From contig JAPEUD010000044.1 in the NCBI GenBank assembly GCA_026026165.1, forward strand, positions 1 through 64,000: DNA of 64,000 bases, written 5' to 3'. This DNA comes from Sarea resinae. Lineage: Eukaryota. Below are positions 564 through 34,350 of this stretch, piece by piece (the stretch's first letter is position 1; the number at the start of each line of letters is the position of its first letter). Below the pieces are notes generated by a model. That model made no database searches, was not told the origin of the DNA, and saw nothing but the letters and a program-made list of their open reading frames with translations. The position numbers were made by a program, and so were the translations under genes.

Positions 564-3500
564 AGGTGCCTGAGGTGCCTGAGGTGCTTTTTTGTTTAGG
601 TTGCTTCTAGTAGTCTGTCTATCTGTCTGTCTGTCTACTGTGAGTAGAATAGAGTAGAGGAGCTTAGAGTAGAGTAGGCGTGCTGGGAGCGATATCCATC
701 CTATCCCATCGATTGTTATCCCTACGATCACCATCATCATCATCGTCGTCGTCGTTACGGAGCGTACTCGTGCCTTCAAGATCGGGCATACACCTACCTG
801 AGGTAGGTAGGTAGAGATGGGTAGATAGCAGGCGGGCAGGCAAACAGGCATTCATTCTACTCTCCTATGAGCAGAAATTCACGCGCGGCCGGTACAGTAT
901 CGCGTTGGATTCATCCATCCGGTTCATGAGCGATGGGATGCGGAAACGCCGTATGTCAGTAGTTAGGTAGCTAGCGGAGGAGAGCTCTCACGATGGATCG
1001 GAGTAGAATACTATGTACTCCGTAGGAGAGGAGAGTACGAAGTAGTTCGTCTCAGACTCTCGATCCCCCCGGGCTGGGGTATGTATGGTTGGGCTAGGTT
1101 GTGCTGTTGTGCTGTTGGGTCTATGGAGTATGTAAATCGAATCTCAAGTCTCTCTTGGTACGCAGTACGGATATCTACCTAAGGTACCTACCTACCTAGC
1201 CAGGGATACAGGACAGCCGGGATATATATTGTTAAAACTGCATGTACAAAGTAGCTCTTCTGATCAAGGTACTCTAGCGACCTAGCTAGGCTAGCTAGCC
1301 TCTCGGGGGTGATTTTCTTTTCTTGCTAGAGAGATTGTTCGAAGGGGTCGATCTTTTGGGAAGAATTTATCGGGTTCAACCCCCCTAGAAGCTGGGATGG
1401 GATGAGTCGCGACCTGACGATCAGGGCAAGGCGGGAGGGATTGTTGGAACGCTGGGTCCGGGGAGGGAGATTATGGGATCATCCGTAATACATAGATTAC
1501 AGAGAACGATGGTGATGGGGATGGGGGGTCCCAGCTGTTTGGGTCCCGCCGTCCTCATCCTCGTCCTTGTTCCTTTTTTCCTCTTACTCGTAGCTACGGA
1601 GTACTTGGCGCGCGCGGCATTATCCTTGTTTGGTGACAGGCAGAGGCAGAGGCAGAGGCAGAGGCGCAGAGGGGGAGATGAGGATCTGAGTGAGCACTAG
1701 CTAGCTCAGGTAGGGACTTGGTTCGTGGGTTCTGTTCCGTGTACGGAGTAGGTAGGCATGTAGCGGCTGGACAGAGACTGAGACTGGGACAACGGCATCA
1801 GCGGCGGCGAAGGCGGTCAGAGAATGGATGGATAGATGGATGGGTTCTTGGAGTGGGAATTGGAGTTGGATGCTGGGGAGCTTGGTAGCTTGGTAGGTGC
1901 TGTCAGCAGCTGGGCTTGGGCTTGATGCTTATGTTCGGCTCGGCAATGATGGGACAAGGTAGGTATGTAGGTAGGTAGGTAGTAAGGTAGGTAGGTAGGT
2001 TAGCTAATGTGGTATGGTGGGAATCGGGAATTTAATTGATATGATGGCTCGACAGGGCATGTTCTATCACTCGGCGTCGTACTGGCGCGGTGAGCGTTGG
2101 AGAGGACACGAGGCGGGCTTGTCTGGGATGGGATGGGCTGCCACGAGGGAGGACAGGGTCGAGGCAGCAAGGCAGGGCAGGGAAGGGAAAAGGGCTGGGA
2201 AAGGTTAGTGGGAGTATGGGGAGAAGAGAGACAGAGAGACTGGCTGGATGGATGTTCTACTACAGTACCGGAGTAGATGTCACACAGGGCGTTGAGGGCG
2301 TTGAAGGCGCGGCGTTGGCTGTGATACCGCACCGCGTGGTCTAGGAAGTCCAGGTCTGAGTGAAGATGGGGACGATGAGGTAGGTGCTCGTGCTAGATGG
2401 ATGATTGGACTTGGAGGTCAGGTAAGGGGTATGTTGGCGTGCTCTTGGACGATGCTGTTTGTTTTTGTTTTCTCCGTCTCGGTGCGAGATGAGGTCATGG
2501 AGATGGAGATGGGGGATAGGGATAGGGATTTCCGGGACGAAGCTACCTACCTACCCTACGGATACTGCATCATTCACATGCATGAGACAATCTCCATCCT
2601 CTCTTGGGGATCGAAGAAGGCAAAGGCCTTTTCGTCTTGCGCCATCAATGGATTCCAGCCATGCCATGCTCTGCTTTGCTCTGCTGGGAGCACGAGTATG
2701 CATTGATGTATGCGTGCCATGCCATGCAATGCCATGCTCTCCTCCCTCGGTACCCACGGTGCGATACCCACGGTACGATACCTCAGCACCGACCACGCCA
2801 CACGAATCGATGTCTCTCTCGCTCTCCCATTCTGTGGTTCGGCTTCATCGCCGTCCACTGTCTTCTCTGCATTCGTGCTCATGCGTGGCACTAAACCGAA
2901 CGGATGCGTTCTGGTGCTACCTCGCTCGCACCGCCCGAAGACAACTGGAAAGTGCGGCAGCTAGGCAGTATCTAGCCTTCCCTCTATCTATCGTACGTTG
3001 GTCGTCGTCCGAGTGCCTCCACTGGGAATAGAGGGGAGCACACCAAGTCGCATAGCTCGCGAAGATCGTTCCAGTGCGCCTCGTCCTTGGCCACCCGGGA
3101 AGATAGTGCACTGGAGGGCCAGTCGCGTACGCTCAGTCGAGGTACTATGTAGGCGTATGGGTGCAGCTTCCTTTCACCGGGATTGACCCCGGGACCGACC
3201 CCACCGTAGCCGTGGACGTGGCGGGCCCTTTATGCTTAATCGAGGCCAATGGCACGTCAAACCATGCCGCTTGGTCGCCAGTGCGCCGACCGAGCCGCGC
3301 CGTGGGGAGCCAGTCCTGCGCATCCCGCAGTAGCGGGTCCTACTACCTTCCTCTACCCAAGGGTCAAAGCAGCAGGGAACAAAGGAAGAGAAGACCCCAC
3401 GGACCCGTTTCCCTCGTCAGCTACAAGGTAAAGAGGCAAGCCCAAGACAAGGCCAGGCAGGACGAGGAGGACTACTACGTAGTAGAGGAATAGTAGGTGT

Positions 3501-3711
3501 GAGGCAATTGAACCGAAGAGGAAGGAAGAGAGGCACTACATGCGGAGAAAGAGAGAAAGACAAAGAGCAGAAACGGTTGCTGTCATCATTGTAATTTCGT
3601 CACTCTACTGCACTCGCTGCAGCCATGGATGTCGCTGCCCCATGAAACCTTCCCAGTTCCCATCCGTGGACGTTGATCCATCCATTGCTGCTGCTGCTGC
3701 TTGCTGCGGCT

Positions 3712-31720: not shown

Positions 31721-32994
31721 ATGCCTCCACGGATAAGAAAATCTGCACTGCAGGTAATCGAATCTCAATCTTTGGTCCCAGCATCACAGTGCTTTTGCCA
31801 TTTTCCAATTCCTCCATCACGGTACTTCTCGGCATCTCCTCAACATGCCACTCGTCTGCGACGTACAATGTTCAGGTGGCTTCAAGGACCAGGCCAGAAT
31901 TTCTACGAACCTCTACCGGGCTCGACAAACTATCTGAGTGCATATGATGTTTCTGGACGACTCATTCGGACTAGAGACTATGATCGTCCAGAGGGTGGTG
32001 CCGACGTTTCTAGATCTTCGGAATTGCCCAAGGAAACCAGCAATGATCTTAGGCCGTTTCCGCTGAATAACGCTTTCAGGAGCCATAGAATACTAAGCGA
32101 TGAGCTGAGGGAGGAAATATATAGAAGAGTCGCGGTTGTGGGAAAGAGTGTGAAAGTTGTGAGCGCCGAACTAGGAGTCGAGATGAACAGAGTTGGGGCG
32201 GTGGTGAGACTAAAGACTATAGAGAAAGATTGGGAGAAAAAGGTATGTGATCTTAATAGTCCCAGCTTTTCGTCCTCCCCGTTTGCATGATGATCCTTAA
32301 AAAAATCGATTAGTCTTGAAGACAATTACATGGTTACAAAATCTACGCTTTGCGAGCCTCTCTGATAGCATCACTCTTTCTCACCTTTATATATCACAAA
32401 TGTTCACCAGGGAAATGACAACTGATCAAATTGTTGGCCACAATCTAGGGCAAGAAATTCCCTAAACCATACGCTCGTGCTGTCCTCTCGATGCTCCCCC
32501 AAACTCCCTTCAATCCAGACTCACCAATGTCGCACGAATCCATTAACGACCTCCCCGCCCACCCTGCGACCATGCAGCAGATCTTTTATCCAACATCCGA
32601 ATCACGACACTTCACACGGGCTGATGCGGGCAAAGTCTTTGACCCTACCCTCCTACCGGCAGACGACCGTATCCCACACCCAGAGCTCATCACGCTGGAG
32701 AGGGAGCGCCTCGAGGGCGTTCCCCGTGCAGAGCGCATCGCACGTCAACGCGAGCGTCTACGGCTTGAGGTTGCGCAGAAGACAGAGCGAGAACGTCTAC
32801 GTGCCGAGAATGAGGCTCGCGAGGTCAAAGCCGTGACGCCGCCTGGCGCTCGCTGGGAATTCCGCTTCCGCGAGATTAGCGTGCAGGATGTCGGCAAAGA
32901 TGGACGGGCCCCTGGAGGTGTCGGCTGGCGGTATGGAATTCCTCATGAGGACCGCAAAAAGGGTCAAGTCAAGATCCCGACGAGAGTTGCCTAG
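31721..32994 (+). CDS. MRPS35: Mitochondrial small-subunit ribosomal protein mS45 (Mrps35/Bot1 family); intron 32243-32448
   Basis: Arg/Ser-rich presequence, RPFPLNNAFRS..LSDELREEIY, RVGAVVRLK, SESRHFTRADA, VGWRYGIPHEDRKKGQVKIPT. Confidence 0.88.
32284..32370 (+). ncRNA. Candidate intronic box C/D snoRNA with two rRNA guides
   Basis: C box ATGATGA 32287-32293, D' TTGA 32316-32319, degenerate C' ATGGTTA, D box CTGA 32362-32365, terminal stem TGC/GCA; guides TCGATTAGTC and TGCGAGCCTC complement conserved LSU rRNA sequences as recalled. Confidence 0.78.
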
Positions 32995-33609
32995 GTGCCA
33001 TGAGTACAGCCTGCCCATATCATCATCCCTCATCATGCGTCTTGCTCCACTTCGTGCGACTACCTTATCCTGTATCACTATTCCTGTATACTACTTCTAA
33101 TCGAAAATATTCGAATAGAAAGATCGATCAAATCAAACTAAGTCACAATTCATCGGCCAAGTTCATTCTTGCCGAACTCATCGCATTCTTGACCAACGGA
33201 GTCTCATTAAGAGCAAGCAGAAGTGTCACGTAATTAAAGAATCAACATGATTCGGGCGAAAACGCTCGCGCTCCCGATCTATAGCAAAGACCTTTCTAGA
33301 GGCTGATCGGTGACTCCACCAAGCTTGATTTGGTATCGGAAATAGGATAGATATTTCTACAATAATGCTTGGAAAAAAAAGACCCCGAATGTGAGACAAA
33401 GAATTTACGTCAACGAATCCAACAATCCCTCAGAAAATCGACGGCTGAAGAATCGCAGGAACCCAGGCCGCCGTCGCTGGCCATCCGACATATGGGCCCC
33501 GCCTTCTGTATGATTAAGGTCATCTCTTCACATTGGGTACTGTCGCGGTTGGACACACGATATCGATTTCGTAATACGGCATTCACTTCACTGAGTCATC
33601 AGGGATATC

Positions 33610-34350
33610 CGTGACGCGAGTGCGTACCCGTTGCTTCCCCGGTTGCTTTGTTGTGTTGGAGACGGACAAGCCAATCAGAGCCACGGATAGAGTAAACAGT
33701 CAAAAGAGGACCGTCGGGGAGACGCGACGTGATGCCTCTGAGACGTTCGACGATTTTTGTCTCGAAATAAGGAGATAAGGTGGGTGGTAGGTTGGTAGGT
33801 GAATGGTTGAGCGGTGAATCCTGAACCATACCTTCACTACCTGCCTAGGGACTGAGTGATGGGAAAGGGGCCAATACGTCAATCGTGACGCGGGTGTCTC
33901 TTCGTTGCTTAGGTTTCGGTTTGTTTTGCTGAGCCAGGGAGCCAATCAGAGGTACAGAAGATATAATCAGTCAAGAGAGAAGGGCTGGGGAGACGCGACG
34001 TGATGTCTCTGAGACGTTCGATGATTTTTGTCTCGAAATGAAGAGATCAGGTGGGTGGGTGGTTGGGTGGTGAATCCAGAATGATACCTTCATTACCTCA
34101 GTGATAGCAAAGGCACCAAGACATCAACCGTGACGCGTTTGCCTTCTCCGTTGCTTAGGTTTCCATTTGTTTTGGTGAACCAGGAGAGCCAATCAGAAGT
34201 ATAGAAGATACAAACAGTCAAGAGAGAAGGGCTGGGGAGACGCGACGTGAGCCCTCTGAGACGTTCGACGATTTTTGTCTCGAAATGCATAGTCGAGGCG
34301 TCTGTTCGTCGGTAGGTAGATAGGTCCGGTGGACAGGCGGTGAATGCCAA
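33610..34350. repeat. Three tandem diverged copies of a ~245-274 bp non-coding unit
   Basis: CGTGACGCG at 33610, 33884, 34129; near-identical ~53-nt core GGGGAGACGCGACGTGA..CTCTGAGACGTTCGAYGATTTTTGTCTCGAAAT at 33716, 33987, 34234. Confidence 0.9.

Follow-up and report, generated by a model that had tools for sequence, protein, structure and literature searches.

A CD39/snR83-family box C/D snoRNA in the mS45 intron of Sarea resinae, with a guide to LSU A917 and a predicted guide to G860

An intron in the gene for the mitoribosomal protein mS45 of the fungus Sarea resinae contains what appears to be a small guide RNA with two guides for cytosolic rRNA. Which RNA is this, which nucleotides would it modify, and are both guides shared by other fungi? 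We studied a window of 64,000 nt (the whole stretch analysed, contig JAPEUD010000044.1, positions 1 to 64,000 of the forward strand; all features below are on the plus strand), the rDNA of the same genome and related loci from metagenomes. As the best explanation of the whole, we consider it quite probable that the element is an orthologue of CD39/snR83 in a long-conserved mS45 intron, guiding A917 and, by prediction, G860 of the LSU rRNA (yeast numbering).

The host gene and its intronic snoRNA

The host gene encodes mS45 (MRPS35/Bot1p). Exon 1 (31721..32242) is open from its ATG, and exon 2 (32449..32994) runs through the stop codon. Both exons match the Pfam family Bot1p (PF12298; E = 5e-24 and 1e-19, respectively), and exon 2 also matches the Neurospora crassa mitoribosomal mS45 in PDB 6yw5 (E = 1e-41). 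The closest named proteins, among the matches listed, come from Xylona, Toensbergia, Geoglossum, Candelina, and Pycnora (65-67% identity). Between the exons lies the spliceosomal intron of 206 nt (32243..32448) that the original prediction had described, which starts with GTATGT, ends with CTAG, and joins the frame in phase 0. A branch-point candidate, CTGAT with its A at 32425 (32422..32426), was recognized by motif match only. The prediction had also set this length against about 50-60 nt for most other introns; a rough motif survey of other intron lengths gave the same result as shuffled sequences and did not confirm that norm.

The snoRNA occupies 32284..32370, is about 85 nt long with putative mature ends, and was assigned by its identity with published CD39 and snR83. 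Box C (ATGATGA, 32287..32293, of the RUGAUGA form) lies near its 5′ end, 44 nt downstream of the 5′ splice site, and box D (CTGA, 32362..32365) lies near its 3′ end, 83 nt upstream of the 3′ splice site. The internal boxes are non-consensus, AAGA for D′ (32319..32322, in the published register) and ATGGTTA for C′ (32330..32336); they covary with each other and can form stem II. The C′ box is of the RUGGUUA type, which stands about 7-10 nt 3′ of D′ in the CD39/snR83 family. In addition, the terminal stem comprises 3 bp (32284-32286 with 32368-32370) and ends about 55 nt upstream of the branch-like CTGAT. At least 10 nt directly before both D and D′ are complementary to the organism's own rRNA. 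The motif check thereby agreed with the predicted boxes C, C′, and D, the short stem and its distance from the branch point, and an intronic double-guide snoRNA aimed at two sites of LSU domain II stands as originally proposed.

The original prediction had suggested an Rfam search as one check. Rfam 15 gave no match at the gathering score over the whole window (the highest score was 18.4 bits, where the cut-off is 70), and no Rfam model detects the snoRNA at 32284-32370. The gene is single-copy, with no further copy in its own genome, where neither of two other matches to the G860 guide has a C box or CTGA.

Downstream of the mS45 gene, two similar non-coding stretches (33640-33760 and 33920-34000; CCAATCAGAG ... 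GTCAA ... GGGGAGACGCGACG) were seen by eye about 290 nt apart. They might represent a promoter or regulatory module present twice.

Pairing with rRNA, family membership and the D′ register

Pairing was tested against the organism's own rDNA, whose LSU gene is on locus L001. The D′ guide (32306..32317) pairs with L001:2386-2397 by 12 of 12 Watson-Crick pairs, and its target is A917. The predicted pairing thus holds on the organism's own LSU rRNA, with a guide of 12 nt instead of the 10 nt first given. The D guide (32351..32361; 32350-32361 as paired) pairs with L001:2328-2339 by 10 Watson-Crick pairs and 2 terminal G.U pairs, and the +5 rule leads to G860, which is the predicted target. Furthermore, a CGC element (32346..32348) may provide extra base-pairing, adding 3 bp to the D duplex beyond a 2-nt bulge (-25.4 kcal/mol with this extension vs -21.9 without). 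The two targets, expected about 60 nt apart, are 57 nt apart in the organism's own rRNA; the yeast number of the D target was obtained from this spacing (855, 912) and an offset of 20 between N. crassa and S. cerevisiae sites. A917 corresponds to Am949 of S. pombe and Am897 of N. crassa. In chance controls with 1000 mononucleotide shuffles against the same rRNA, the D′ guide's score was never reached and the D guide's was reached 22 times. Thus, the D guide is alone only modestly above chance, and its support comes from conservation.

The same LSU gene carries a 1530-nt group I intron (L001:2403-3932 in G000:C72; Rfam RF00028, 113 bits) with a sense-strand frame for a His-Cys box homing endonuclease (2558-3349, PF05551 over the cut-off) and an internal guide at 3524-3535. 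Its P1 uses the 5′ exon at 2398-2402, which adjoins the D′ duplex and does not overlap it. We take the insertion site to be L798.

As judged by sequence, the snoRNA is a member of the known family that includes Neurospora CD39, S. pombe snR83, and Candida CD39. The Candida host gene orf19.3559 is, we assume, MRPS35. Compared by eye, 19-22 nt are identical across the D′ guide and D′ box: 19 consecutive nucleotides over guide and D′ with N. crassa CD39, which also shares 12 nt over C′, and 22 consecutive nucleotides with S. pombe snR83. N. crassa CD39 (EU780962) is a cDNA-library clone with the D′ target 26S-Am897 and is listed as the homologue of snR83 (Liu et al. 2009, PMC2780460). It resembles our snoRNA in box C, the guide with its AAGA D′ box, the C′ region, the target, and its intronic position; however, its U-rich D element is predicted for Am375, and it has no G860 guide. 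S. pombe snR83 (AJ617351) is intronic as well, has an AAGA D′ box and an RTGGTTA C′ box, and is assigned to 25S Am949, the same target (Diao et al. 2014, PMC4138321; PMC4605285). It differs in having no G860 complement before box D (PMC4138321), and the consulted part of the S. pombe modification table lists no modification at the G860 equivalent (Taoka et al. 2015, PMC4605285). Meanwhile, Candida CD39 shares the family name and the intronic location, in orf19.3559, and is present in 4 of 4 Candida-clade species examined and absent in S. cerevisiae (Donovan et al. 2016, PMC5033589); orf19.3559 is listed among ribosomal proteins (PMC9241596). CD39 is not mentioned in the parts of Lim 2021 and Luo 2013 consulted.

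The original prediction had read the D′ box as TTGA (32316-32319) and the target as A920. TTGA is indeed closer to the CUGA consensus and stands directly after a 10-nt complement. With AAGA as the D′ box, the target becomes A917 instead. In the published CD39 duplex, D′ is AAGA, one base past the longer guide, with 13/0 pairing to Am897 (PMC2780460). Mass spectrometry in S. pombe maps the methylated A within GAAAGAmC to 949, equivalent to S. cerevisiae 917, with 98.6% modified (Taoka et al. 2015, PMC4605285). Across the related loci described below, the C′ box covaries with the AAGA position: among the distinct sequences with a parsed C′ box in the matches listed, stem II is Watson-Crick at D′1:C′6 in 90 of 96 and at D′2:C′5 in 95 of 96. 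Two-sided changes of D′ and C′ occur in the mS45-hosted loci L024, L027, L086, L096, and L066, and the compensatory pairs in mS45-hosted loci include CAGA facing RTGGTGA and ATGA facing ATGGATA. In addition, only 40 of the 118 sequences have the TTGA register (35 if the 102 distinct ones are counted; matches listed plus the window), a frequency that is not independent, because the scan pattern imposed GA at the AAGA register, whereas the covariation and the mass spectrometry are independent of it. We conclude that the D′ guide addresses A917 rather than A920, and regard the TTGA register as almost certainly wrong. The D′ mark had also been proposed as possibly specific to filamentous fungi; for A917 this does not hold, as S. 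pombe has the mark and Candida has CD39.

The guide slot before box D in related loci

The metagenomes were scanned with a pattern of box C, the 12-nt D′ guide and GA, the D guide being left out, and at least 117 related loci were found, a biased and partial sample. An mS45 exon stands at the identical intron position in 94 of the 117 listed loci, with exons on both sides in 68. Box C has a median position 47 nt after the donor (88 of the listed loci), and box D one 70 nt before the acceptor (74 of the listed loci). That a mitoribosomal protein gene hosts the snoRNA had been called notable; this wide occurrence of the mS45 position, and the precedent of SNORA58 within MRPL3 (PMC3511168), make it less so.

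In 23 of the listed loci no mS45 exon was called; Pfam searches of 55 of their 60 candidate frames found Bot1p in L040, L060, and L106, and RRM in L073, L080, and L113. No D box could be parsed in L009, L013, L044, L069, and L090, which may be chance matches. In L057, L073, L080, and L113, the family member follows a different exon end, and the RRM-domain frames of the last three lie downstream of it. The different exon end and these frames make a host switch from mS45 in one lineage likely. Furthermore, L031, L056, L039, and L071 have a consensus CTGA D′ box and lie where no mS45 gene was detected; L056 is located immediately 3′ of a frame for a DEAD-box helicase. L036 is complete as a double-guide snoRNA and carries the G860 guide, and neither an mS45 exon nor a Pfam match was found in its frames tested; its host is possibly non-coding.

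The elements before box D in the 117 listed loci and the window were scored against the rRNA of Sarea resinae, not that of the loci themselves, at a threshold of at least 8.5. Among these 118 sequences, 36 (35 listed loci and the window) point to LSU G860, 11 to U143, 5 to A781 (11 at score 8), 4 to G988 (6 at score 8), and 2 to G2098, the last four in own-LSU numbering; 6 point to 18S C49 and 1 to 5.8S A42. No such target was found for 48, and 5 have no parsed D box (matches listed throughout). Among the matches listed, all 36 carriers share the G860 10-mer and its register, 1 nt from CTGA; they have 21 distinct spacers, of which 20 keep a GC 1-2 nt 5′ of the guide. Going by these sequences alone, the A917 half (C box, D′ guide, and C′/D′ motif) stays constant, and the slot ahead of box D varies or is empty.

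The distribution of the second guides was examined on a host tree (MAFFT and FastTree, 72 de-duplicated locus fragments, 177 columns, weak backbone) and against 71 named host proteins taken from the best 120 of 327 matches. Among the matches listed, G860 guides have hosts near Lachnellula (up to 93% identity) and Sclerotinia, near Hortaea and Rachicladosporium, and near Xylona and Pycnora. They were also found in a long-branch group (L088, L035, and L115). We take the carrying hosts to be Leotiomycetes-like (Lachnellula), Dothideomycetes-like (Hortaea, Rachicladosporium), and Lichinomycetes-like (the window and L097). The A781 guides are, among the matches listed, confined to one clade, which we presume to be Pleosporales-like. 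The U143 guides have hosts near Lecanora and in two further groups, and the 18S C49 guides are in distant hosts with 35-43% identity (matches listed). Because the tree has 177 columns and low backbone support and the named proteins are a best-scoring set, we claim a wide spread and a clustering of the guides and no order of events.

Several single cases in the D slot were also recorded. The 18S C49 guide was found in L007, L010, L020, L037, L072, and L121, of which L020 was not placed; the others are the distant hosts. In N. crassa, a guide for this site sits before the D′ box of CD4 (PMC2780460), and a hand-over of the target between snoRNAs is likely. L105 has a 10-nt guide for 5.8S A42, and L031 and L056 have in common the 9-nt guide to G2098. 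Pattern searches of the Sarea resinae genome for the D guides of other lineages gave 2 matches for A786 and 4 for C49, none near a C box; the two remaining patterns had no match.

Function of the two guides and significance

For an orthologue of CD39/snR83, general box C/D biology suggests that the mS45 pre-mRNA would be spliced, and that the lariat would be debranched and trimmed to the RNA of about 85 nt, on whose C/D and C′/D′ motifs Snu13, Nop56, Nop58, and Nop1 would assemble. Pre-25S rRNA is complementary to the D′ guide over 12 of 12 nt, and AAGA as the D′ box would direct the methyl to A917, whose modification has been measured in S. pombe. Upstream of this site, the D guide and its bulged 3-bp extension would pair, and box D would put G860 at +5. 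On established box C/D biology, both A917 and G860 would then be methylated in Sarea resinae, and G860 would be 2′-O-methylated in the lineages that keep the D guide.

It could be that only the D′ half methylates, and that the stretch ahead of box D has no catalytic role and serves as an extra docking pairing to domain II, aiding A917 methylation or rRNA folding and leaving G860 unmodified. The two sites are merely 57 nt apart, extra base-pairing near targets lifts yeast methylation up to five-fold (van Nues 2011, PMC3116282), and Gm860 was found neither in the consulted part of the S. pombe table (PMC4605285) nor in literature searches. However, the spacing to CTGA is equal in all 36 carriers listed, and a fixed spacing is required for catalysis and not for docking. 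In addition, other listed lineages use the same register for guides to distant sites, among them 18S C49 and 5.8S A42, which are predicted targets of N. crassa CD4 and CD29 (PMC2780460). Docking is thus unlikely in our judgement. It is still less probable, indeed very improbable, that this gene, though kept by the family, is silent or decaying in Sarea resinae. In one metatranscriptome run (share 0.19), contigs covered only parts of the exons (31754-31904 and 32680-33127), and neither a splice junction nor the intron was covered; the terminal stem has just 3 bp, and the D guides of the relatives L075 and L081 are decayed. Against this, each of the four boxes and each guide agrees exactly with the family and the organism's own rRNA, this copy is the sole one in the genome, and terminal stems are reported to be absent from the C/D snoRNAs of Aspergillus fumigatus (PMC2377427). 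We therefore retain the reading of a double-guide CD39/snR83 orthologue.

The family and Am917 are known already, and so are lineage-specific second guides as a pattern; the second guide to G860 is the part that may be unreported. Fungal snoRNAs with a lineage-specific second target and target switches include snR87, snR53, and clan CD_5, cases that likewise combine a conserved D′ guide with a lineage-varying D guide (Canzler et al. 2018, PMC5824354). The CD39 D targets do not appear in the sections of that paper examined. The original prediction did not recall either site as an S. cerevisiae methylation, and both are absent from the mass-spectrometry table rows searched (Taoka 2016, PMC5062969). 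G860 is also absent from Table 1 of Liu et al. 2009 (PMC2780460) and from the part of the A. fumigatus table examined (PMC2377427), and the consulted S. pombe table has no row between Sc817 and Sc917 (PMC4605285). Our literature search found no report of a G860 target, which Supplemental Table S14 of Canzler et al. 2018 could hold; a search by site name missed even the known Am917, because papers use species numbering, so that it is weak evidence of absence. Among the literature matches listed, there was no rRNA methylation map for any filamentous fungus.

A wider reading is that the D position is an exchangeable guide slot on a scaffold that most of the fungi sampled have kept in one mS45 intron. 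The unreported G860 guide, probably old in Pezizomycotina, would in separate lineages have given way to guides for at least four other rRNA sites, and some of the replacement guides would address sites that other snoRNAs guide in N. crassa. All of these, G860 included, would be real methylations so far unpublished. We offer this tentatively, as a possibility whose chances we put somewhat below even.

A snoRNA missed by every Rfam model is now annotated, and its target is corrected to Am917, which is measured in S. pombe; no new mechanism is indicated. The G860 guide predicts methylation of this nucleotide in several classes of filamentous fungi, and varied second guides at one fixed locus make a compact system for studying the turnover of rRNA modification. 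If the exchangeable-slot reading is true, the D-slot guides would mark lineage-diagnostic rRNA methylations, and the locus would be a natural experiment in the gain and loss of rRNA marks and in their transfer from one snoRNA to another.
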